Origin: Armatimonadota bacterium
GTDB lineage: Bacteria; Sysuimicrobiota; Sysuimicrobiia; Sysuimicrobiales; Humicultoraceae
Direction of reading: 5' to 3'
NCBI GenBank assembly: GCA_037446215.1
Contig: JBBIJB010000041.1
Span: forward strand, 1-10,615
DNA length: 10,615 bases
This document shows positions 1 to 10,615 of the stretch, piece after piece. A model generated the notes under the pieces. That model was not told where the DNA came from. It did no database searches and saw only the letters and a program-made list of their open reading frames with translations. Position numbers and translations under genes: made by a program. Within the stretch, counting starts at the first letter, position 1; each line of letters starts with the position of its first letter.

Positions 1-15
1 ACACGGCAGGTCGCT

Positions 16-23
16 GGGGAGGG
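16..23 (+). promoter_or_regulatory. Shine-Dalgarno site of first ompH
   Basis: GGGGAGGG ending 6 nt upstream of ATG at 30. Confidence 0.7.
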
Positions 24-29
24 TATGCG

Positions 30-479
30 ATGAAGGTAGATGCACGGAAGCTGGCCATAGTGGCCGGCCTCGCTCTGATCATCGTGGTCGGGGCCGGACT
101 GCTTCTGCGTCAGGCGCCAGTACTGGGTCAGTCCTTCTCCGTCGGGTACGTGGATATGCAGCGGGCACTGGATAGCCACCCCCGGAAGGTCAACTCGGAG
201 CGCGCGCTGCAGGAGTTCTTCCAGGCCAAGCAGCGGGAGTTCCAGGAGAAGAGCAAGGGGATGACGGCGTTCCAGCGGCAGGAGCTCGATCGCAAGCTGC
301 AGCAGGAGATCCTCGACAGGCGGAACACGCTCCTGGGAGGGCTCGACAAGGAGCTGCGCGCCGCGGTCGAGAGCGTGGCCAAGGACTCCGGGATGTCGGT
401 CGTGCTCGACCGGTCGGTGGTTCTCTACGGCGGTACCGACCTGACCGAAGCCGTCATCAAGCAGATCAAGGGAAGGTAG
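30..479 (+). CDS. skp: Skp/OmpH family periplasmic chaperone (149 aa)
   Basis: N-terminal hydrophobic signal/TM segment; OmpH N-motif VGYVDMQRALDSHP; helical Q/E/K-rich middle; C-motif AVESVAKDSGMSVVLDRSVVLYGGTDLTEAVIKQI; good RBS. Confidence 0.9.
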   Translation: MKVDARKLAIVAGLALIIVVGAGLLLRQAPVLGQSFSVGYVDMQRALDSHPRKVNSERALQEFFQAKQREFQEKSKGMTAFQRQELDRKLQQEILDRRNTLLGGLDKELRAAVESVAKDSGMSVVLDRSVVLYGGTDLTEAVIKQIKGR

Positions 480-480
480 C

Positions 481-1617
481 ATGCGGCGCACCCTCGCCGC
501 CTGTGCCATCCTGGCCGCGACCGCCGTGCTGGCGGGTTGCCGGCCACAGGGGGCCTCCCAGCCAATACCCTCACCGTCGCCGGTCTCCGTGGAGACACCT
601 GCGGGTTACAGCGTGGCCAGGGTGGACGTGGGCGAGGCGCTCAAGGCCCACAGGCGGTGGCCCGAACTGGAGGCGCTCAACAAGAAGATGGCGGCTCTAG
701 AGGCTCGTCTCGGATCCCCGCTTCCCCCGCCGGAGGTGCCCGACCTGGGCGCCGCGCTCGATGCGGAGCTGAAGGCGGAGGCGGAGCGTCTCCAGGCCCT
801 CTACAGGGGCGAGATGAAGCTGCTCGAGGAGCAGGCCAAGCAGCGCATGGAGGCGTTCGCAAACGACATCAGGGCCGAGAACGAGGCCAAGATCGCCGAC
901 AGGCACAGGGCGATAAACGCCGAGTTGCAGAGGGCCGTGGACGGCAAGAGGGACGAGCTCCAGAAGGAGCTGGAGCGGTTCGAGCTTGCGGCGATGGCCG
1001 AGTACCGGATCCCGCTCCTCAACCTCCGTCTCAAGGGAGACGTTGTGGGCCTGGCCAACGAGGAAGAGGCCAAGCGGATCACCGCTGAGGCCGAGCGATT
1101 CACCACGGAGCGGGACGGCAAGATCCGGGCCAAGTCCCAGTCGCTCGAGAAGGCGTTCCAGGAGTTCCAGCAGGCCAGGGTCAGCGAGGCCGAGGCCCAG
1201 CTGAAGACGATGGGGACGTCACTCAACGAGGATGCCGAGAAGCGCGTAGCGGCCAGGCAGCAGGAGATCCAGGCCGAGATGAAGGCCGCGGTCAAGTCCC
1301 GCGAAGAGGCGTTCCAGCGGGCGATGGAGGAGAAGAAGAAGATCCTCGCCGGTGGCGCCGAGGCGCAGATGAGGTCTCTGCAGGAGCGCTACCTCAGGCG
1401 GGTCCAGTCAGAGGCGGGGCGCTTCCAGCAGGAGCTCGGCGAGGTGGCTGAGCAGCGCTTCAGGTTGGAGTACAGCATGATCGCGGATGTCAGGATCGAG
1501 GTGGCCACGATCGCCCAGGAGCGGAGGTTCGACCTGGTGCTGTCACGGGCCGTCGCGGCCCCGGGCGCCGCCGATCTGACCAAGGATGTCATCGCCCGGC
1601 TCCGGGGATCCCAGTAG
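481..1617 (+). CDS. Extended Skp/OmpH-like lipoprotein with long coiled-coil insertion (378 aa)
   Basis: Lipobox LAGC (Cys20); OmpH-like N-motif VARVDVGEALKAH and C-motif EVATIAQERRFDLVL...DLTKDVIARL flank ~275 aa of mostly E/A/K/R/Q-rich helical sequence; starts 1 nt after upstream stop. Confidence 0.75.
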   Translation: MRRTLAACAILAATAVLAGCRPQGASQPIPSPSPVSVETPAGYSVARVDVGEALKAHRRWPELEALNKKMAALEARLGSPLPPPEVPDLGAALDAELKAEAERLQALYRGEMKLLEEQAKQRMEAFANDIRAENEAKIADRHRAINAELQRAVDGKRDELQKELERFELAAMAEYRIPLLNLRLKGDVVGLANEEEAKRITAEAERFTTERDGKIRAKSQSLEKAFQEFQQARVSEAEAQLKTMGTSLNEDAEKRVAARQQEIQAEMKAAVKSREEAFQRAMEEKKKILAGGAEAQMRSLQERYLRRVQSEAGRFQQELGEVAEQRFRLEYSMIADVRIEVATIAQERRFDLVLSRAVAAPGAADLTKDVIARLRGSQ

Positions 1618-1665
1618 CCCGGCGGTAGCGGACTCTCAGATGCCTACAGGTGGTGGAGTGTTGGA

Positions 1666-2091
1666 ATGAAGACGGTCAGGAAGACCCTGCTCCTGCTAGT
1701 GCCAGCGCTGCTGTTGCTCACGGTCGCGGGCTGTACCGCCGGTCGAGTCGGGCTGGTTGACAACCAGCGCATCCTCGGCGAGAGCGCCATGGCCCTCCGG
1801 TACCAGAAGGAGCTGGACGACCGCGAGCGCGCGATGGCCGCCGATCTGCAGCTGCTCGTCTCCCAGCTATCGAGGGAGGACCTCGAAGCCCGCCGGGTTC
1901 AGTACCTCCGCGAGCTGCAGGGGCTGCGCGCCGAGCTGGACACGATACTGAACCGAGAGGTCAGGGCCGCCATCCAGCAGGTCGCGAAAGAGAAGCGGCT
2001 GCGAGGCGTCATCGTCAAGGGTCCCGTCGTGTACGGCAGGCAGGGTGCCGTCGTCGACATCACCCAGGATGTGATAGACCGGCTGAAGTAG
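1666..2091 (+). CDS. skp: Skp/OmpH family lipoprotein (141 aa)
   Basis: Lipobox VAGC (Cys23); VGLVDNQRIL N-motif; AIQQVAKEKRLRGVI...DITQDVIDRLK C-motif; GGTGGAG upstream. Confidence 0.85.
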   Translation: MKTVRKTLLLLVPALLLLTVAGCTAGRVGLVDNQRILGESAMALRYQKELDDRERAMAADLQLLVSQLSREDLEARRVQYLRELQGLRAELDTILNREVRAAIQQVAKEKRLRGVIVKGPVVYGRQGAVVDITQDVIDRLK

Positions 2092-2118
2092 CCCTTGCCG
2101 GACGGTCGAGGGCGCCCG

Positions 2119-3159
2119 ATGAGACTCGCGCAGCTCGCAGAGATCGCGCGCGCCGAACTCCTCGGCACCGGTGACGTCGAGATCCGATCGGTCACCGACC
2201 TGGAGGACGCGCGGCCGGACTCCATAGTGATGATTGCCGACGCCCGCCGCCTCCACGACGCGGAGGCCTCACCCGCGGGCGCGCTCCTGGTAGGCGCCAC
2301 TCTATCTCCTGTCGCCAAGCCCGCCCTTAGGGCCGCGAATCTCAGGGCCGCTTTTGCCCGTCTTTTGGGCGCGCTTGCCGATGAGGCGCCCTCCTGGACG
2401 GGCATCCACCCGAGTGCCGTGGTGGCTCCCGACGCGGAGATAGGGCCGGGAGCGGCGCTGTCCGCGCTCGTGGCCGTCGAGCAGGGAGCTCGGATCGGGG
2501 AGAGGAGCCGCGTCATGGCGGGTACCGTCATCGGGGCCCGTTCGGCCATCGGCGCAGACTGCCTAATCTACCCGAACGTGACCATCTACCCCAACACCGT
2601 GATAGGCGATCGGGTGACGATCCACAGCGGATCGGTCATCGGCAGCGACGGCTTCGGCTACGCGACCGAGGACGGGATCCACGTCAAGATCCCTCACGTG
2701 GGGAGGGTGGTGATCGAGGACGACGTCGAGATAGGGGCCTGCGTGACCGTGGACCGCGCAACCCTGGGAGAGACGCGCATAGGCCGCGGGACGAAGATCG
2801 ACAACCTGGTACAGGTGGCCCACAATGTGAATATCGGCGAAGGGGTGTTCGTGGTCTCGCTCACGGGGATCTCGGGCAGCGTCTCCGTGGGGTCGGGAGC
2901 GATCCTTGCGGGCCAGGCCGGAGTCGCGGACCACGTCAGCGTGGGTGCACGGGCAAGGGTGCTGGGCAGGGCCGGTGTGACCCGAGACATCCCCGAGGGC
3001 GCGACCGTCTCAGGGTTCCCCGCCCGAGACCACCGCGAGGAGTTGCGCGTGATGGCGGCGATGCGCCGCCTGCCGGAGCTGCTCGAGCGGGTGCAGGCGC
3101 TGGAGTCAAGGCTCTCTGGCACGCCGCGCCGCGGCCGGCGCAGGCCCGGCGGAACATGA
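2119..3159 (+). CDS. lpxD: UDP-3-O-(3-hydroxyacyl)glucosamine N-acyltransferase LpxD
   Basis: N-terminal uridine-binding domain (MRLAQLAE...), hexapeptide repeats, [31 protein letters not shown] with catalytic His, C-terminal helix [10 protein letters not shown]. Start moved from TTG 2095 to ATG 2119 (GAGG upstream). Confidence 0.95.
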
Positions 3160-4952
3160 TCCGCGCCCTCTCGCTCTTCCTGGCGGCTCTCCTCGCGGCG
3201 GCCGCCGCGCAAGGGGCGGCCGCGCCTCCCTCGCATGCCCAATCCGGAGATGTGGTCGTCAGGGCGCTGCCCGGCGGCGGGGGCGGTGCCGAGATGCTGA
3301 TCCGCGGCAGGCCCGCGATGAAGCTGTCCGGGCCGGACGCGCTGCGCCGCCTTCGGCTCGCCGCGGGTAGGCTGACGCCGCTGCCGCTCAAGCCCGTGAA
3401 GGTGGCCGGCGAACTCCGCCCAGGCGCGGCGCACCTCACGGTGGATGGCGCGGTGGTGCTGACCCTGCTTCCCGATGACGCGAAGCGCTCAGGCGAGACG
3501 CTGCGGGGGATGGCGGCGAGGATGGCGCGCACGCTCGCGGCGTCTCTCGTGCCTCCGCCGCTTCTGGCCGCCCCCGGGGCCGTCGTGCTCTCGGTGGGCG
3601 GCACCGCAACCGTGCTGATCACGGCCTCCACGCCCGGCGCCACTACCGTGGGGGCCTTCGACAGGCAGGTAGTCGACGTCGCCAGGGCCGGAGACCTCCT
3701 CACGATCACGGGGATCAGGGTGGGCAGCACGGTCATCCGGCTCGCCCAGGGCAAGCACTCGGCTCAGGTCGCGGTCTCCGTCCGTCCTCCCGCAGGCGTG
3801 GTCCCGGAGTCGGTCGAGGTCTCGGTCACGGGTGCGCCGGCTCCGATCGAGTTGATGCGCGAGGCGGTTAGGCGGCGCCTTCAAGACGCGGTAAGGCTTG
3901 AGCCCGGCGCCTCGCTGGAGATAGGCGAGATCTCCCTGGAAGGGCCCCTTCCCCAGGGTGGCACCGCCTCTGCCAGGGTCAACGTGGGCGTGCGCAGTCC
4001 GTTCGCCGGCCCCGTGCATCGGTCGGTGGAGGTCCGCGTGGCCAACCTGCCCGTGGCGCTTGCCGAGCCCGATCTGCTCCTGGTCAGCAACAGGCCGGAG
4101 GTCATAACCGACAGCGGCCTCCTGTTCCATGAGACGCTCGACCGGGAGAAGTCGGCGCGCCTTCTCTACCACCACATGAACGGCGGCGAGGGGAAGGCGC
4201 GGGTCCTCAAGATCACCCTAGCCAACCCTTCGGGGTTCCGCGTCCTGGTGCACTACGCCAGCGGCATAGCCGGGCCCTCGCCCGACCCCGTGTTCGTCGG
4301 GTTCTCCTCAACCGCCAGGTTCCTCGAGAGGCTGGTCAATGGGCGGGGATACGTCGTCGAGGTCGCTCCTCGCGGCGCCGTGACCTTCAACGCCTACACG
4401 TTGGCGCCAAACGCGCTGGTCTCCGGGCTGATGCAGTTCCAGGTCATAGAGGGAGGGCCGGTGGAGCTGAGCGTGCATGTACGGCTCCCGTGGCTGCTGG
4501 ATCGCACGGTGACCACCGACCTCGGGCCCTGGGCCTTCCCGCATCCGCGGGGGACCTTTCCGGGGGCGCCCGTCGAGGTGGTCCGGGAGCTGCGCGCCGG
4601 TGAGCCGGCGCCCGTTGCCGACCTCGGCATCATGTCCGAGGCGCGCGACGTCCGGACCGGTGAGTCCCTGGTCGGCGACTACGGGATCCTGTACCGGCTG
4701 AGGCTCCGCGTCACCAACCCCACCGACCGTGAGGCCACCGTCTCGCTGGTCGCGCACGCCGCCGGGGGACTCGCCCGCGGCCTGTTCTACGTGGACAGAG
4801 AGCCGGTCGACATAGGGCTCCTCAGGCCCAGGGAGGAGCGCGTCGTGGGGGTCTTCGCGATACCCGCGGGGGCGGCGCGCGAGCTCCTGATCGTGACGAT
4901 GCCGGTGGCCGGATCGTACTACCCGGTGCGGCTCTCGCTGAGGCCCAGATGA
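3156..4952 (+). CDS. Uncharacterised secreted multidomain protein (598 aa): Ig-like segment plus C-terminal DUF3370-like region
   Basis: Ala/Leu-rich Sec signal peptide; ATGA overlaps at both ends; GC-rich third positions in this frame; motifs [19 protein letters not shown] and GDYGILY. The ORF is solid but the function is unknown. Confidence 0.8.
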
Positions 4953-5797
4953 CAGCCGTCGGGGTGCAGCGGACGATCACGCAAGCGGTTACCGTGGCCG
5001 GCACCGGGCTGCACTCCGGCGAGCACGCCACCGTCCGGCTGCTGCCCGCCCCGCCGTCCTCCGGGATTACCTTCCGCAGGACGGATCGGCCCGGCCTCCC
5101 TACGGTCCGGGCAAGCCTCGACGAGGTGGTGGCGACCGATAGGAGCGTGGTGCTCGGGGAGGGGGCGCGCATCGCCACGGTGGAGCACCTGATGTCGGCG
5201 GCGCGGGGTCTCGGAGTCGACAACCTGACGGTGGAGCTCGAGGGCGGGGAGCTGCCCTGCGGAGACGGCAGCGCGACGATCTACGTTGAGGCACTGCTCC
5301 GCGGCGGCCTCGTAGAGCAGGACGCGCCGCGCAGCCCCATAGTGGTCGGGTCGACGGCCTGGGCCGAGAGCGGCCCGTCCATCGTGGCGGCGTTCCCATC
5401 CGACGAGTTCCGCGTCACCTACGTGGCGACCGTGGATGGAACCGCCACGGCCCCGCAGATCGCCCACTTTCGGTCCTCGACGGAGGAGTATGCCTCTCAG
5501 ATAGCCCCGGCCCGCACCTGGGGCCGCGCCTCCGACGCCGACTCGCTTCGGGCCAGGGGGCTTGCACTCGGCGCCTCGCTGTCGACGGCCCTGGTCATAG
5601 GCCCGGACGGCTTCGTAAACGAGCCCCGGTTTCCCAACGAGGTGGCCCGCCACAAGGTCCTTGACATCATGGGCGACCTGGCACTGCTCGGCAGGCCGTT
5701 GCTCGGCCACATCGTGGCCGTCAGGGGAGGGCATGCCCTCCACCTAGCGCTGGCCCGCGTGATCGCCGCGAGGTTTGGAGGCGCCGATGGAGCCTAG
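4949..5797 (+). CDS. lpxC: UDP-3-O-acyl-N-acetylglucosamine deacetylase LpxC
   Basis: QRTI...GTGLHSG, TVEHLMSA, E.P..DGSA, IAPART, RFPNE.ARHKVLDIMGDL (Zn ligands), GGHALH; alternative GTG start at 4964. Confidence 0.95.
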   Translation: MTAVGVQRTITQAVTVAGTGLHSGEHATVRLLPAPPSSGITFRRTDRPGLPTVRASLDEVVATDRSVVLGEGARIATVEHLMSAARGLGVDNLTVELEGGELPCGDGSATIYVEALLRGGLVEQDAPRSPIVVGSTAWAESGPSIVAAFPSDEFRVTYVATVDGTATAPQIAHFRSSTEEYASQIAPARTWGRASDADSLRARGLALGASLSTALVIGPDGFVNEPRFPNEVARHKVLDIMGDLALLGRPLLGHIVAVRGGHALHLALARVIAARFGGADGA

Positions 5798-6284
5798 CCC
5801 CGCCCTGTGGGACGTAGAAGCGATCCAGAGGGTGATCCCGCACCGCTATCCCTTCCTCATGGTGGACCGGATAGTAGAGCTCGACCCGGGCAGGAGCATC
5901 ACCGGCGTGAAGAACGTGACAATCAACGAGCCCTACTTCGCGGGGCACATCCCCGGGCACCCCGTCATGCCCGGAGTGCTCCTGGTGGAGGCGATGGCGC
6001 AGGTCGGCGCCTGCCTGGTCCTGAACCATCCCGACCTGCACGGCCGGCTCGCCTATTTCGGGGCGATCGACCAGGCGAGGTTCAGGCGCAGGGTGGTGCC
6101 TGGAGACCAGCTCACGATACGGGTCGAGTTGCTACGGCTCCGGGGACGGTTGATCAGGGTCAGGGCCGAGGCCCGCGTCGGCGACGAGGTCGCGGCGGAG
6201 GGCACGCTGACGTTCTTCTTCGCCGAGAGCGGCCGGGCGGACCAGGCAGACGGGAACGGGAGGGAGAACGGTGCAGAGCCCTAG
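5787..6284 (+). CDS. fabZ: 3-hydroxyacyl-ACP dehydratase FabZ
   Basis: IPHRYPFLMVDRI, KNVTINEPYFAGH.PGHPVMPGVLLVEAMAQ, ARFRRRVVPGDQL; ATG 5787 preceded by GGAGG (5777-5781). Confidence 0.95.
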   Translation: MEPSPALWDVEAIQRVIPHRYPFLMVDRIVELDPGRSITGVKNVTINEPYFAGHIPGHPVMPGVLLVEAMAQVGACLVLNHPDLHGRLAYFGAIDQARFRRRVVPGDQLTIRVELLRLRGRLIRVRAEARVGDEVAAEGTLTFFFAESGRADQADGNGRENGAEP

Positions 6285-7101
6285 GCAGGTGCCCGCAGGC
6301 CCTGCAGTCCATCCGACCGCGGTCATCGCCCCCAGCGCGCGCCTCGAGGAGGGTGCCAGCGTGGGACCCTGTGCCGTGATCGGAGCGGACGTCATGGTCG
6401 GAAGCGGCACCACGATCGGACCCCACTCCGTGGTTCACGAAGATGTCACGATAGGCCGCGGCAACGCGATCGCCGCGCATGTGGTCATCGGCGGCCCCCC
6501 GCAGGACCGCGCCTACCGGGGTGAGCGCACGCGCGTGGTGATCGGCGACAACAACGTGTTCAGCGAGTTCGCCAGCGTGGACCGAGCGACCGGCGAGGGG
6601 CTCGAAACCTACATCGGCAGCGGCACCTACATTATGTCCGGAGTCAAGATCAGCCACAACTGCCGCGTGGAGGACGGCGCCATCGTCGTCAGCGGCTCGC
6701 AGATCGGCGGTTGGGCGCACATCGGGGAGAAGGCCTACGTCGGTGGGATCTGCGGGGTCCACCAGTTCGTGCGCATCGGCCGCCTGGTGATGGTGGCAGG
6801 GCTCTCGGCCGTTAGGCAGGACGTCCCACCCTACCTGCTGGTCGGCGGCTTCCAGACCCGCGCCTTTGGACTCAACAGGGTCGGACTCCAGCGCCACGGT
6901 ATCCCCCAATCCGACCGGAAGGCGCTGAGGAGGGTGTTCCGCGCGTTCTTCCAGATGGGCCTGCCCGCCGAAGAGGCGTTGCGCCTGGTCGAACAGGAGG
7001 CGCAGTCGTGCGAGCCGGCCCGCCACTTCCTTGAGTTCGTGCGGGAGGCACGCACGCGCAAGCGGGGTATCGTGAGATGGCAGGCTCAGACAGAGCCGTA
7101 G
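6271..7101 (+). CDS. lpxA: Acyl-ACP:UDP-N-acetylglucosamine O-acyltransferase LpxA (divergent active site)
   Basis: VHPTAVI hexapeptide start, GGPPQD, HQFVRIG, QDVPPY, GLNRVGLQR, C-terminal helical domain ending RGIVR; located after fabZ; GTG start with GGGAG upstream. Confidence 0.92.
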   Translation: MQSPRQVPAGPAVHPTAVIAPSARLEEGASVGPCAVIGADVMVGSGTTIGPHSVVHEDVTIGRGNAIAAHVVIGGPPQDRAYRGERTRVVIGDNNVFSEFASVDRATGEGLETYIGSGTYIMSGVKISHNCRVEDGAIVVSGSQIGGWAHIGEKAYVGGICGVHQFVRIGRLVMVAGLSAVRQDVPPYLLVGGFQTRAFGLNRVGLQRHGIPQSDRKALRRVFRAFFQMGLPAEEALRLVEQEAQSCEPARHFLEFVREARTRKRGIVRWQAQTEP

Positions 7102-7913
7102 GCCTGCTGGCCGGCAGTGGAGCGTTCCCCGAGGTGATCGCCGAGGCGGTCAAGGCGCGGGGGCAGCAGCTCGTCTGCGTGCAGGTTGCGGGACAGTCCG
7201 CCGTGCTCTCAGGGTTGGCCGACCACTACCGCCTCTGCGGGCCGGGCGCGCTGAGCGAGGTCGTCGCGACTTTCCTGACGCACCGCGTCACAGGGCTGCT
7301 GGTAGCGGGCCAGTTCCCTCGCGCCGAGCTTCTTGCCGAGGGCGACGCCCTGCGCGAGAGGCTGATGCAGACCGCGCCCGACCGGTGCGACGGCACGCTG
7401 TTCAACTCCCTTGCCGCGCTCCTGGCCGAGCATGGGATCAACCTCCTCGACCAGGCTCACTACGTGGGGGAGCTCCTGGCCCCGCCGGGGGTGATCACCT
7501 CGCGCGCGCCCACACCGGAGGAGACCGCGGACCTGGAGTTCGGACGATCGGTCGCGAGGCGCCTGGCCGACCTGGACGTCGGCCAAACCGTCGTGCTCAG
7601 ACGGGGAGTGATCCTCGCCGTCGAGGCCGCAGAGGGAACCGACCTGACCATCAGGCGCGGCGGGGCGATGGCCCGGGGCGTGGTCGTGGTGAAGGCCAGC
7701 CGCAACAACCAGGATCCCAAGTTCGACATCCCGGCCGTCGGGCCGGAGACAGTAGCCGTCATGCGCGAGGTCGGCGCCTCCGCGCTGGGTGTCGACGCCC
7801 GCCGGACGCTGCTCCTCCAGCGCGAGCGCCTCGCCGCATCCGCGGATCAGGCCGGGATCACGATCGTCGCAGCCGAAGCCCCGCCCCTGGGCACGCCGCT
7901 CAGTGTCCCCTGA
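7077..7913 (+). CDS. lpxI: UDP-2,3-diacylglucosamine pyrophosphatase LpxI (DUF1009)
   Basis: VGLLAGSGAFP, LDVGQTVV, LAVEAAEGTD.TIRR, VK.S..QDPKFDIPAVGPET; lies between lpxA and lpxB. Confidence 0.92.
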   Translation: MAGSDRAVGLLAGSGAFPEVIAEAVKARGQQLVCVQVAGQSAVLSGLADHYRLCGPGALSEVVATFLTHRVTGLLVAGQFPRAELLAEGDALRERLMQTAPDRCDGTLFNSLAALLAEHGINLLDQAHYVGELLAPPGVITSRAPTPEETADLEFGRSVARRLADLDVGQTVVLRRGVILAVEAAEGTDLTIRRGGAMARGVVVVKASRNNQDPKFDIPAVGPETVAVMREVGASALGVDARRTLLLQRERLAASADQAGITIVAAEAPPLGTPLSVP

Positions 7914-9078
7914 TAGGGGTTCCCGGCGCGTCTTCCTCGTGGCCGGTGAGGTCTCGGGCGACCTGCACGGCGCCGAGCTGGCCCGTGAGATCGCAGCACT
8001 GGCCCCAGGAGTGCGCCTGGAGGGAGTAGGGGGGGCCCGGATGGCCGCGGCGGGCGTGAGGCTCGTCGAGGAGAGCGGCGAGTGGGGAATAATGGGTTGG
8101 GTCGAGGCCGCCAGGCACGCCCGACCGTTCCTGCGCAGGTTGTCCAGCCTGACCTCCTACCTCCTCGCCGACCCGCCGGAGTTGCTGGTCCCGATAGACT
8201 TCCCGGGCTTCAATCTGGCTCTCCTGCGACGGGTGGGCGCCAGGATCCGGTCGGTCTACTACGTCCCGCCCATGGTGTCGGTGCGGCGCGGGAGCCGCGC
8301 GCGGCGGGTTGCCTCGCTGGGCGCCCGGCTGCTCGCAATCTTCCCCTTCGAGGCGGAGGCCTATCGGCGTGCCGGCGCGGACGTGGCATTCGTGGGCCAT
8401 CCTGCGGCAGGGCTGCGGGAAGAGGTGGAGCCGTGCGACTCCGTTCGCGCGCGCCTCGGCGTGCCCGAAGGCGCCGAGGTGGCGGGCCTGTTCCCGGGGA
8501 GCCGGAGGCAGGAGCTGGACAGCCTGCTGGGCCCGATGCTGGGCACCGCCCGTGCCATCTCCGCCGAGCGCCCCGGCACCCTCTTCCTCCTGGCCGTTGC
8601 CTCTCCACTCCTCCGGGGCCAGATCGAGGAAGCCGTGGCCTCTTCAGGCGTGCGCGTCGCGCTGGTCGACCGCTCGCTGGACGTGCTCGCGGCCAGCGAC
8701 GTGGTGCTGATCGCTTCCGGAACCGCGGCCGTCGAGGCGATGGTCCTGGGGGTGCCTATGGTCGTGGCGTACAGCGTGTCGCCGCTGAACTGGCTGATTG
8801 CGCGCCTCGCCCTCAAGACCAGGTTCGCCTCGATCCCCAACATACTCGCCGGGGAGGCGTTGGTGCCGGAGCTGCTGCAGGGGAGGGCCACACCCGCATC
8901 GATGAGCGGCGAGGTCCTGGCACTCCTGCGTAGTCCCTCGGCACGCGAGGCGATGCGTGCCCGGCTGCTGCGCCTCTCCGGGGAGTTGGGTTCGCCCGGC
9001 GCCGCACGGCGGGCCGCGCTCGAGGTGCTGGCCGCGCTCGGCGCGCCTGCCTTGAAGCCCGGCGGTGCAATCGAGTAA
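7903..9078 (+). CDS. lpxB: Lipid-A-disaccharide synthase LpxB
   Basis: AGEVSGDLHG, GVGGARM, IMGWVE, IDFPGFN, IFPFE, FVGHP, FPGSRRQE, ASGTAAVE, PMVVAY, SIPNILAG..LVPELLQ. Start inferred at GTG 7903 overlapping lpxI (exact start uncertain). Confidence 0.93.
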   Translation: MSPDRGSRRVFLVAGEVSGDLHGAELAREIAALAPGVRLEGVGGARMAAAGVRLVEESGEWGIMGWVEAARHARPFLRRLSSLTSYLLADPPELLVPIDFPGFNLALLRRVGARIRSVYYVPPMVSVRRGSRARRVASLGARLLAIFPFEAEAYRRAGADVAFVGHPAAGLREEVEPCDSVRARLGVPEGAEVAGLFPGSRRQELDSLLGPMLGTARAISAERPGTLFLLAVASPLLRGQIEEAVASSGVRVALVDRSLDVLAASDVVLIASGTAAVEAMVLGVPMVVAYSVSPLNWLIARLALKTRFASIPNILAGEALVPELLQGRATPASMSGEVLALLRSPSAREAMRARLLRLSGELGSPGAARRAALEVLAALGAPALKPGGAIE

Positions 9079-9099
9079 GGTGGTCTAGAGGACAGCGAC

Positions 9100-9735
9100 G
9101 TGACGGGTAATAGGGCTGAAAGCCGCAGGGGGTCTATCTCTCCGAGGGCAGGGCGCTGGATGGGCGCGGCGCTCGCCGCCGGCGTGGTCGCCCTGGTCAT
9201 CAGGACGCTGCTTCAGGCGCCCGCGCCGACGCCCGCCGGAACAGGATCGCCGCCGGGGAGCCAGGCCTCGACGCCCAGGCCTTCCCCGACCGCGACGATC
9301 GCCAGGGTGCCCCCCGTGGAGGTCAAGCGTACCGCCATCTCGACGGTTGACTCCGAGGGCCGCCTCCAGTGGGAGATCCGGGCCGAGACGGCCTCGGTGG
9401 ACAGCCTCTCGAGGACGGCCACCCTGACCCGCGTCGAGGGCACCTACTTCCACGAGGGCGGGCCCGCGGTCACCTTCGCGGCCCCGAAGGGCACCTTCTT
9501 CGTGGCGACCCGCAACATGACCCTCTCCGACGGCGTCAGGGCTCGCGCCGCCGGAGGGGAGACGCTTGAGGCAAAGGTCGTCCGCTGGGATCCGGGAAGG
9601 GCTCAGATAGAGGCCACCGGCTCGGTCGTGCTCCGGCAGGGAGGTATGACCGTCCGGGCGGACCGCCTCATGACAGACACATCCCTGCGCCTCTCCAGCA
9701 TGAGCGGGAACGTCCGTGTCACCGTGGATCGGTAG
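9100..9735 (+). CDS. lptC: LPS export periplasmic protein LptC
   Basis: Single N-terminal hydrophobic anchor, Pro/Ser/Thr linker, GRLQWEIRAE motif, four beta-jellyroll units; GTG start with AGAGGA upstream (alternative ATG 9160); precedes lptA-like and lptB-like genes. Confidence 0.82.
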   Translation: MTGNRAESRRGSISPRAGRWMGAALAAGVVALVIRTLLQAPAPTPAGTGSPPGSQASTPRPSPTATIARVPPVEVKRTAISTVDSEGRLQWEIRAETASVDSLSRTATLTRVEGTYFHEGGPAVTFAAPKGTFFVATRNMTLSDGVRARAAGGETLEAKVVRWDPGRAQIEATGSVVLRQGGMTVRADRLMTDTSLRLSSMSGNVRVTVDR

Positions 9736-10561
9736 CCGCCCCTCGGCGGCGGGCGCAGCCCTGGCGGCACTCCTCGTCCTGGCCTTCCTCTGTGCCCCGG
9801 CCGCCGGAGCGCCCGCTCCGACGCAGACCCGCTCCGATTCCATCGAGATCAGCGGCGCCACGCTGCTCGAGTACAGCGATGCCACGGGCAGGTGGACGGC
9901 CGAGGGAAGCCCAGTCGCGGTGACGCGAGGGCAGACGCGCCTCACCGCGCCCCGGATAGTCTATGAGCAGCGGGCAGGGACGATCACCGCCAGCGGCGGC
10001 GCGGCGCTGTCGGAGCCCGGCCTCTCGGTGCGCGCCGACGAGGCGCGCCTCCGCCTATCCGACGACACGGTACGCGCCCGGGGCAGCGTGCGGGTGATCT
10101 CCTCCAGGGATGGCCCGCCGATCGAGCTAGCCGCGGCCGAGGTCGAGGGGATGCTGCGGGCCCGAAGGTTCGCGGCGGGCGGGGCCGTCTCGCTCTCTAG
10201 AGGGGAGTGGAGGCTCTCCGGCGAGAGGCTCGACTACGACGACGCGGCGCGCGTGGCGCGGGTCACCGGGGGGCCGACGGCAGGCTTCGGCGAGGCGGTG
10301 ATGACAGCGGACGCCATCACCCTCTACGTCGCCGAGGAAGTGGCGAGGGGAGAGGGAGCGGTCAGGTTGCGGCGGGGCGAGCTCCTGGGTACTGCGCGCC
10401 GCATCGACATCGTGTTGAGGGAGGGAAGGGCGGTCCTGATGGGGAACGCACGGGTTGAGCGCGGCGCAGACCAAGTCTCCGCCGAGGAGATCGAGGTCGC
10501 CCTCGACGGGTCGTGGGTCTCAGCCCGCGGGGGGTCGCGCCTCATCCTCACGCCGCCCTAA
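9716..10561 (+). CDS. lptA: LptA/OstA-family beta-jellyroll periplasmic protein, about twice normal length (281 aa)
   Basis: Signal peptide, then about 8 repeats of a ~29-aa unit with pattern LxA.xIxY....xxAxGxVxxxxG; located between lptC and lptB. Confidence 0.78.
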   Translation: MSPWIGSRPSAAGAALAALLVLAFLCAPAAGAPAPTQTRSDSIEISGATLLEYSDATGRWTAEGSPVAVTRGQTRLTAPRIVYEQRAGTITASGGAALSEPGLSVRADEARLRLSDDTVRARGSVRVISSRDGPPIELAAAEVEGMLRARRFAAGGAVSLSRGEWRLSGERLDYDDAARVARVTGGPTAGFGEAVMTADAITLYVAEEVARGEGAVRLRRGELLGTARRIDIVLREGRAVLMGNARVERGADQVSAEEIEVALDGSWVSARGGSRLILTPP

Positions 10562-10572
10562 GCCGCCAAGAG

Positions 10573-10615
10573 ATGCTTGCGACGAGAGGTCTCTACAAGC
10601 AGTACGGTGGACGCA
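10573..10615 (+). CDS. lptB: 5' fragment of ABC ATPase, probably LPS export ATPase LptB (truncated by window edge)
   Basis: ATG 10573 gives MLATRGLYKQYGGR, matching the LptB-type start L...L.K.Y..R; synteny lptC-lptA-lptB; only 14 codons visible. Confidence 0.65.
   Translation, partial: MLATRGLYKQYGGR

Follow-up and report, generated by a model that had tools for sequence, protein, structure and literature searches.

The lipid A gene cluster carried by a 10,615-nucleotide stretch of DNA from an Armatimonadota bacterium (contig JBBIJB010000041.1, positions 1-10,615, called the window below, at its full length) raises the question of whether an LpxA that lacks several residues deemed essential in Escherichia coli can still start lipid A synthesis in the usual way. 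The lpxA gene (6271-7101, stop codon included; all window features cited here lie on the plus strand) codes for 276 amino acids in the open reading frame (ORF) listing and begins with GTG, 7 nt upstream of which a GGAGG ribosome-binding site can be read off the sequence (6259-6263). The original prediction, made from the letters alone, described an intact enzyme with a rewired substrate-binding site and altered specificity. We find that this gene is the genuine LpxA of its genome and is under purifying selection. The reading that we favour, which we hold to be about as probable as all others together, is that of a functional acyl-acyl carrier protein (ACP):uridine diphosphate (UDP)-N-acetylglucosamine (GlcNAc) 3-O-acyltransferase, starting lipid A synthesis by canonical chemistry with a rebuilt pocket around the 3-hydroxyl (3-OH) of the acyl chain.

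A phmmer alignment against LpxA of E. coli (chain 6p9p_A) served to map the residues; family positions are given in E. coli numbering and residues of the window protein in its own. Papers are cited by PMC number. The catalytic base His125 and the oxyanion-hole Gly143 are kept as H129 (in H129-N130, 6655-6660) and G147 (in G147-W148, 6709-6714). The UDP and sugar contacts are retained as well: Q73 and D74 correspond to Q78 and D79 in the stretch QDRAY (Q78-Y82, 6502-6516), equivalent to Q73-D74-L75-K76-Y77 of E. coli, in which Tyr is also kept and L75 has become R80; the phosphate contacts H160-Q161 are H164-Q165 (6760-6765); and the uracil/UDP contacts N198 and R204 are N202 and R208 (6874-6894). 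R100 has its equivalent in R105. Three features conserved in E. coli are absent: N130 occupies the place of Asp126, the partner of the catalytic His; K126 (6646-6648) and D104 (6580-6582) replace the 3-OH readers H122 and H99; and A81 (6511-6513) and W148 (codon 6712-6714, 19 residues past H129) replace the sugar contacts K76 and H144. In addition, R93 corresponds to S98 (6562-6564) and A124 to S128 (6652-6654), in a column that holds Asp in sister groups with R122. The replacements originally claimed at K76, H122, D126 and H144 are all real and their codon positions correct, and the alignment confirms the residues listed as kept (H125, Q73/D74, H160/Q161, N198 and R204), to which G143 can be added; of the PQDRAY motif placed at 6502-6516, QDRAY is indeed encoded there and the Pro codon lies outside, at 6499-6501.

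A review supplies the functions that these positions have in E. coli LpxA. The acyl 3-OH touches the Nε of H122, Q73 and a water molecule held by H99, H125 is paired with D126, H144 reaches the sugar 6-OH and K76 the ring oxygen (PMC6286764). K76, H122, H144 and H160 are named as important for activity (PMC6408518, PMC4322802), together with a conserved Arg given as R204 in one of these papers and as R208 in the other.

The window protein passes both LpxA equivalog cut-offs, NF003657 with 281.2 bits (cut-off 226) and TIGR01852 with 257.6 bits (cut-off 231.05), and LpxD models give it only ~100 bits. Its Pfam domains are Hexapep and Acetyltransf_11 (LpxA domain 2). An AlphaFold2 (AF2) model built from 47 sequences, with a mean predicted local distance difference test (pLDDT) score of 95.1, shows hexapeptide strands followed by helices at residues 203-262, and matches solved LpxA structures of several species with template modelling (TM) scores of 0.88-0.97 and root-mean-square deviations (rmsd) of 1.2-1.4 Å, as against TM 0.48-0.56 for LpxD structures. 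Pfam, model and structure match thus agree on the left-handed beta-helix and C-terminal four-helix domain of an LpxA. Going by its family, the protein would be a homotrimer whose active sites lie between subunits. It is the only LpxA above cut-off in its genome, which is 91% complete; the search for a second canonical copy there returned just LpxD and two weak hexapeptide proteins (34 and 21.7 bits). An LpxA match was obtained in 40 of the 41 genomes searched in the order, a single one in 39 of them and two in G008.

How unusual the replacements are can be seen from residues tabulated on MAFFT alignments of three samples. The first holds 150 representatives of 50%-identity clusters, the best 150 of ~980 at E <= 1e-30, whose identity to the query is 34-48%; the second holds the 120 clusters (90% identity) closest to the query, which is itself counted; the third holds 80 named genome loci, picked through a conserved pattern of the HQFVRIGR type and hence biased. 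Among the 150 representatives the catalytic His is invariant (150/150), and Gly143 occurs in 375 of the 376 pooled sequences used for the tree described below. Position 126 is D in 90 representatives, N in 57, E in 2 and S in 1, and position 76 is K in 77, S in 20, A in 18, G in 12 and another residue in 23, with no basic residue at either 75 or 76 in 54 of the 150. Position 122 is H in 149 and N in the remaining one; position 144 is H in 124, Y in 18, E and F in 3 each, G in 2 and never W; position 99 is H in 75, N in 55, S in 12, Q in 4, C in 2, T and E in one each and never D. The nearest clusters have N126 throughout (120/120), K (57), R (37) or H (26) at 122, W (69), H (25), F (14), Y (9), R (2) or Q (1) at 144, and D (64), S (29), E (15), H (7) or N (5) at 99. 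N126 was found in 67 of the 80 named loci, most of the cyanobacterium-labelled ones included, and these last (Synechocystis salina, Leptolyngbya sp. JSC-1, Spirulina subsalsa, Nodosilinea) combine it with K76, H122 and H144. Nine of the 80 have K/R122, all of them metagenome-assembled genomes (MAGs) labelled Armatimonadetes, Ca. Nitrosymbiomonas sp. or "bacterium".

Judging from these alignments, N126 and a residue other than Lys at 76 are ordinary in the LpxA family, and K/R122, D/E99 and W144 are rare (0, 1 and 0 of the best 150 representatives) and clade-specific. Asp126 is no defining mark of the family, given that 57 of the 150 representatives and the majority of cyanobacterium-labelled loci have Asn there, and of the three E. 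coli features absent from the window protein only H122 is truly family-wide. The original prediction of rewiring at four sites therefore stands in part: K/R122 and W144 are rare, whereas N126 (57/150) and the loss of Lys76 (73/150, Ala in 18) are common, which that prediction had itself named as grounds for its refutation. We found no paper on this LpxA variant among open-access papers and bioRxiv.

The rare replacements have a single phylogenetic home. In a midpoint-rooted FastTree phylogeny (LG+gamma, query columns 11-270) of 376 sequences, left from 389 pooled ones after 13 exact duplicates or sequences shorter than 230 amino acids were dropped, all 88 sequences with D/E99 and K/R122 form one Armatimonadota clade with support 1.0. 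The states at 99, 122 and 144 are DKW in 62 members, ERW in 13, DRW in 8, DKR in 3, and DKH and EKW in one each; an acid at 99 is present in 88/88 by definition, and W144 in 84/88. Position 76 is A in 68, S in 9 and T in 6 of the 88, and position 75 is R in 67, K in 10 and L in 10. R93 has become Ser in 85/88, with Arg there in 250 of the 288 other sequences; further clade-specific changes are T97 to S, H99 to D/E, H122 to K/R, A124 to S and H144 to W, and an invariant new His stands at the position of E. coli F65 (88/88). An unbiased position scan showed that the strongest clade-specific positions group on two adjoining helix rungs. The nearest groups on the tree are Armatimonadota-like; they have S99, R122 and N126, one of F, Y and H at 144, and in many cases His at 74. 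Parsimony requires 4 changes for K/R122 and 5 for W144, against 28 for N126 and 38 for K76, so that positions 126 and 76 flip often and position 122 seldom.

These positions also vary together. Of the 118 sequences with Lys (67) or Arg (51) at 122 among the 376 pooled ones, 117 also have an acid at 99 or 124; D124 occurs only alongside R122 (29/29), and R93 is kept in 243 of 257 sequences with H122 versus 6 of 118 with K/R122 (lost in 112/118). Within the order, all 39 LpxA genes of 38 genomes have N126; D/E99 with K/R122 was found in 19, of which 18 have W144, S99 with R122 in 4 and H122 in 16 (this sample leaves aside partial hits of G029 and G040 and includes the unpublished G015 and G024, whose removal changes nothing). 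An attempt to read D99-K122 and E99-R122 as compensatory pairs gave no usable signal, as E-R is confined to two basal groups and K and R flip on a D background.

Since the replacements recur in 88 related sequences, chance or sequencing noise is ruled out. At least 97% conservation across the clade was found at 53 positions, among them H129, N130, G147, H164, Q165, N202 and R208. Close orthologue pairs have ratios of nonsynonymous to synonymous divergence (dN/dS) of 0.04-0.12 at dS 0.10-0.27; pairs that include the window gene have a dN of ~0.25 and a dS of ~1. In 24 clade coding sequences (20 distinct, as 4 are exact duplicates from repeated loci), the key residues are kept or swapped solely between D and E or K and R, through synonymous codons: GAC/GAT and GAA/GAG at 99, AAG/AAA and CGG/CGT/CGC at 122, AAC/AAT at 126. 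Orthologue conservation and dN/dS, which the original prediction had named as a check, therefore indicate purifying selection, with ratios not near 1.

Under the favoured reading, His129 would act as the base and the Gly147 amide as the oxyanion hole, and Q165, H164, N202 and R208 would hold UDP, Q78 and D79 the sugar. Asn130 and Ala81 are ordinary variants for the family, and His-Asn also occurs in the sister enzyme LpxD. The rebuilding of the pocket is clade-wide and consists of the replacement of the H122/H99-water pair by K/R122 beside an acid (D/E99, or D124 in sister groups), with the loss of Arg93 and the change of H144 to Trp. In the AF2 model, strand periodicity places residues 102-104 one rung below 126-128, with the loop 105-111 taking up the extra residues, so that positions 99 and 124 would lie one above the other in a single column, offset from 122 by two residues; this geometry agrees with that of E. 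coli, where H99 (through water) and H122 both reach the 3-OH (PMC6286764). In this arrangement an acid at 99 or 124 could pair with K/R122, the positive charge having moved from R93 to 122, and the ion pair may stand in for the network of His and water by which the acyl 3-OH is read. The pocket would thereby keep Q73 and gain a donor (K/R122) and an acceptor (D/E99), and K126, D104 and Q78 could still hydrogen-bond an R-3-hydroxyacyl chain. Trp148 may pack on, or hydrogen-bond, the 6-OH side of the sugar; as H, Y and F are tolerated at 144 across the family, Trp there seems to extend an aromatic theme. H150, two residues past W148, was considered as a replacement for H144 and rejected, its position being variable (H in 42 of the 120 nearest clusters, otherwise S, R, D, E or Q), and R80 is a possible but not a required substitute for K76, given Leu in 10/88 clade members and the 54 representatives without a basic residue at 75 or 76.

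LpxD provides a precedent for such a pocket, as it reads the acyl 3-OH through Asp232 and Gln236, the latter placed three residues ahead of the catalytic His, like H122 in LpxA (PMC6286764). The LpxD of the window, aligned to 6p83 (chain numbering = native + 2), has retained the residues corresponding to D232, Q236 and H239-N240 of E. coli, which indicates that 3-hydroxyacyl-ACP is still used in the pathway. On the acceptor side, the other enzymes of the cluster make demands of their own (the 6-OH for LpxB, the N-acetyl group for LpxC, the freed amine for LpxD), which leaves UDP-GlcNAc and its 3-amino analogue as the acceptors allowed. The product would most likely be UDP-3-O-(R-3-hydroxyacyl)-GlcNAc.

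That product would feed a short, cyanobacterium-like pathway made of LpxA, LpxC, LpxD, LpxI and LpxB. Searches of the own genome returned neither LpxK nor WaaA nor LpxL; across the 41 genomes of the order LpxK was found in none and LpxL in two, WaaA having been searched in the own genome only. A four-enzyme lipid A pathway is described for Cyanobacteria and Dictyoglomi (PMC3087551), and KdtA and LpxL are reported in other, marine classes of Armatimonadota (PMC10290634), so that the short pathway is a trait of this lineage and not of the phylum. A cyanobacterium-like pathway plus LpxI implies a lipid A without 4'-phosphate, 3-deoxy-D-manno-octulosonate (Kdo) or secondary acyl chains.

Several points weigh against canonical chemistry in a rebuilt pocket. 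The contact between D104 and K126 is deduced from the geometry of the model; the rarity figures describe the best 150 of ~980 representatives and not the whole family; and the co-occurrence counts come from kin sequences with few independent events (~4 parsimony changes at 122), which makes them a pattern and not a statistical test. Of the E. coli contacts to the 3-OH, Q73 alone is unchanged, the joint replacement of H122, H144 and K76 could alter substrate handling, the scarcity of LpxL means that a 3-OH is not needed here for secondary acylation, and a conserved gene pair resembling gnnB and gnnA, presented below, might mean a 3-amino sugar acceptor. Each of the alternatives draws on some of these points. 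The least probable by far is that of a decaying or catalytically dead relic, to which the loss of several residues essential in E. coli could point. Its catalytic His, oxyanion Gly and UDP contacts are intact, however, it is the sole LpxA of its genome, its predicted model is confident, and the conservation across the clade together with the low dN/dS led us to reject decay or a pseudogene; the original claim of an intact enzyme accordingly holds, on the strength of the single copy, the full lpx cluster, the equivalog score, the LpxA fold and purifying selection. A changed acyl donor, with a non-hydroxylated or differently substituted chain taken up after the loss of the H122 and H99-water readers, is a better candidate, although we judge it distinctly improbable. 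The LpxA of Chlamydia is reported to use non-hydroxylated myristoyl-ACP. In the clade, both His residues that contact the 3-OH in E. coli (PMC6286764) are replaced throughout, one of them near-invariant elsewhere (H122 in 149 of the best 150 representatives), and with no LpxL in the own genome and LpxL in 2/41 relatives there would be no secondary acylation requiring the hydroxyl. The tandem lpxA genes of G008 (contig 12, L035 6886-9418, minus strand), which lie between fabZ and lpxB, both score above the LpxA cut-offs (273 and 299 bits) and have no lpxI visible between them, also differ at 122 and 144, with S99/R122/D124/H144 in one and S99/H122/W144 in the other, and hint at diversifying specificity in the lineage; they recall the two-lpxA arrangement reported for Capnocytophaga, where the backbone is a hybrid of 2,3-diamino-2,3-dideoxyglucose (GlcN3N) and glucosamine (GlcN) (PMC3342949). 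Yet a hydroxyl finds good hydrogen-bond partners in K/R, D/E and Q73 alike, and a buried charge pair would be odd beside a plain methylene. Moreover, the LpxD of the window retains its 3-OH readers, fabZ adjoins lpxA as in canonical clusters, and the Cyanobacteria, given as four-enzyme organisms without lpxL in PMC3087551, nevertheless keep H122 in the loci labelled as such.

The strongest competitor, which we regard as possible but doubtful, moves the change to the acceptor: UDP-GlcNAc3N would be used instead of, or besides, UDP-GlcNAc, giving an amide at position 3 as in Leptospira and Acidithiobacillus, and the trait would then belong to the whole order, not to the K122/W144 clade alone. 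It draws on contig 52 of the own genome (G000; L125 2585-7115, minus strand), where a conserved unit codes for an SRPBCC protein, a DegT-family aminotransferase (374 amino acids), directly downstream a Gfo/Idh/MocA dehydrogenase (318 amino acids) and an AIR-synthase-related protein (462 amino acids). The best NCBIfam match of the dehydrogenase is UDP-N-acetylglucosamine 3-dehydrogenase (242.8 bits). The dehydrogenase is present in 39/41 genomes of the order at E <= 1e-40, the aminotransferase adjoins it in 30/30 loci examined, and the flanks in three regions (own genome and two relatives) hold SRPBCC and AIR-synthase-like genes and no glycan-cluster genes. An AIR-synthase-like gene follows the pair in 19/30 loci. 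The protein sizes match those of the gnnA (319 amino acids) and gnnB (380 amino acids) ORFs of M. loti, and in Bradyrhizobium and Brucella this pair also lies away from the lpx cluster (PMC5644692). LpxD, an N-acyltransferase, likewise has His-Asn. On the other hand, the 242.8 bits of the dehydrogenase are far under the cut-off of 450 and the matches of the aminotransferase are generic. Such aminotransferase-dehydrogenase pairs also serve other 3-amino-sugar pathways, for instance those of kanosamine and UDP-diNAc sugars. The pair is found equally in relatives with H122 and H144 and so leaves the flagged substitutions unexplained; the idea that the gnnA-like gene goes with the K/R122 clade was rejected, H122 genomes being among the 39 that have it. 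No sequence signature of a preference for UDP-GlcNAc3N is known to us; the GlcNAc3N-selective LpxA of Leptospira has H122, D126 and H144, and positions 76 and 144 contact the ring oxygen and the 6-OH, not position 3 (PMC6286764).

Comparison with known systems helps to situate the protein. With E. coli LpxA (PDB 1LXA, 2QIA, 6P9P) it shares the fold (model TM 0.89-0.94, rmsd 1.3-1.4 Å), ~35% identity, the catalytic His, the oxyanion Gly, Q73/D74, H160/Q161, N198/R204 and a place beside fabZ, and it differs by L75R, K76A, R93S, H99D, H122K, A124S, D126N and H144W, as well as by the lack of LpxK, WaaA and LpxL from the searched pathway of its host. Cyanobacterial LpxA and the four-enzyme pathway (PMC3087551) resemble it in N126, in the lpxD-lpxC-fabZ-lpxA-lpxB cluster and in having no lpxK, waaA or lpxL, whereas cyanobacterial sequences keep K76, H122, H144 and mostly N99, and the window cluster also holds lpxI and an additional ORF. 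Closer at hand, the sister LpxA groups of Armatimonadota (e.g. MAG 'Armatimonadetes bacterium RBG_19FT_COMBO_69_19', L050) have in common with it R122, N126, the loss of R93, an acid by a basic residue and an aromatic residue at 144, but they carry D124 as the acid where the clade has D/E99, together with Ser at 99, frequently His in place of D74, and F, Y or H, not W, at 144. LpxD (E. coli H239-N240, Q236, D232) is a homologous left-handed beta-helix acyltransferase with His-Asn, an acid, and a donor three residues before the catalytic His; it differs as an N-acyltransferase with an extra N-terminal domain and an Asp contributed by the neighbouring subunit, and the window protein scores as LpxA. 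The UDP-GlcNAc3N-selective LpxA of Leptospira interrogans (PDB 3HSQ) is similar in fold (model TM 0.88-0.94) and in lacking Lys at 76 (Gly in Leptospira), and differs by keeping H99, H122, D126 and H144; Leptospira has a route to the 3-amino sugar, which in the window host is a candidate only.

The surroundings of lpxA are those of a lipid A locus, with the order lpxD-ORF-lpxC-fabZ-lpxA-lpxI-lpxB-lptC-lptA on the plus strand. The lpxD, lpxC, fabZ and lpxB context expected of an LpxA is thus present, in the same order as in G008. Four-enzyme organisms have a conserved lpxD-lpxC-fabZ-lpxA-lpxB cluster (PMC3087551), and the agreement of the window with it was counted in favour of a functional LpxA. 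Upstream of lpxD (2095-3159; TIGR01853, 348 bits) are three OmpH/Skp-like genes (30-479, 481-1617 and 1666-2091), the middle one of which codes for 378 amino acids with a lipoprotein-like start (LAGC) and an OmpH match confined to its C-terminus. Between lpxD and lpxC (4949-5797; TIGR00325, 226.3 bits, cut-off 187.25) lies an ORF of 598 amino acids with a signal-peptide-like start (3156-4952), for which NCBIfam gave no match and Pfam only DUF3370, below threshold (15.7 bits). An ORF of 634 amino acids without a family match occupies the equivalent place in G008, a genome of the same family (L035 10808-12712). The 598-amino-acid ORF looks like a conserved member of the lipid A cluster, with its family unassigned. 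The fabZ frame (5775-6284; NF000582, 182.9 bits, cut-off 113) matches over residues 13-147, and its real start probably lies 3' of 5775.

Downstream of lpxA, lpxI (7077-7913) has the Pfam domains LpxI_N and LpxI_C and reaches 91.8 bits with NF047836, under its cut-off of 400; lpxB (7789-9078) scores 252.7 bits with TIGR00215 (cut-off 190.25), the match beginning at ORF residue 48. Then come lptC (9100-9735) and an LptA-like gene (9716-10561), whose product of 281 amino acids, roughly double the 142 positions of the LptA model, has an LptA/LptD_N match at residues 154-262 and a weak LptC match. Within the family, the window LpxA (D99/K122) is 57-62% identical to seven LpxAs of its own genus (L031-L034, L036, L039, L040), all E99/R122, and 68-69% identical to LpxAs from another genus (L024, L025), a skew that could stem from exchange or from unequal rates inside the family; LpxI has no such skew, being 66-68% identical to both genera. 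A MAG labelled Ca. Nitrosymbiomonas sp. is among the same-genus relatives of the host.

Armatimonadota have few cultured members, and we found no published lipid A structure for them among open-access papers and bioRxiv. It is unlikely, in our estimate, that the swap seen in the clade (R93S, H99D/E, H122K/R, A124S and H144W) is a true change of specificity that yields a non-canonical lipid A in the minimal LpxA-C-D-I-B pathway accompanied by the gnnB/gnnA-like pair. If it were, it would point to an uncharacterised lipid A in Armatimonadota, for example with a GlcN3N backbone and four amide-linked chains or with a chain at position 3 other than a plain 3-hydroxyacyl, and the outer-membrane anchor of these uncultured bacteria would be unlike any characterised one. 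If activity is retained, as the favoured reading has it, the clade would possess a second way to read the acyl 3-hydroxyl, resembling that of LpxD, and would show which of the "essential" E. coli residues are family-wide. H122 is treated as a conserved substrate-binding His of LpxA, an antibiotic target, and a whole clade has K/R and an acid in its stead; D126 and K76, according to our survey, are unsuitable as markers of the LpxA family.

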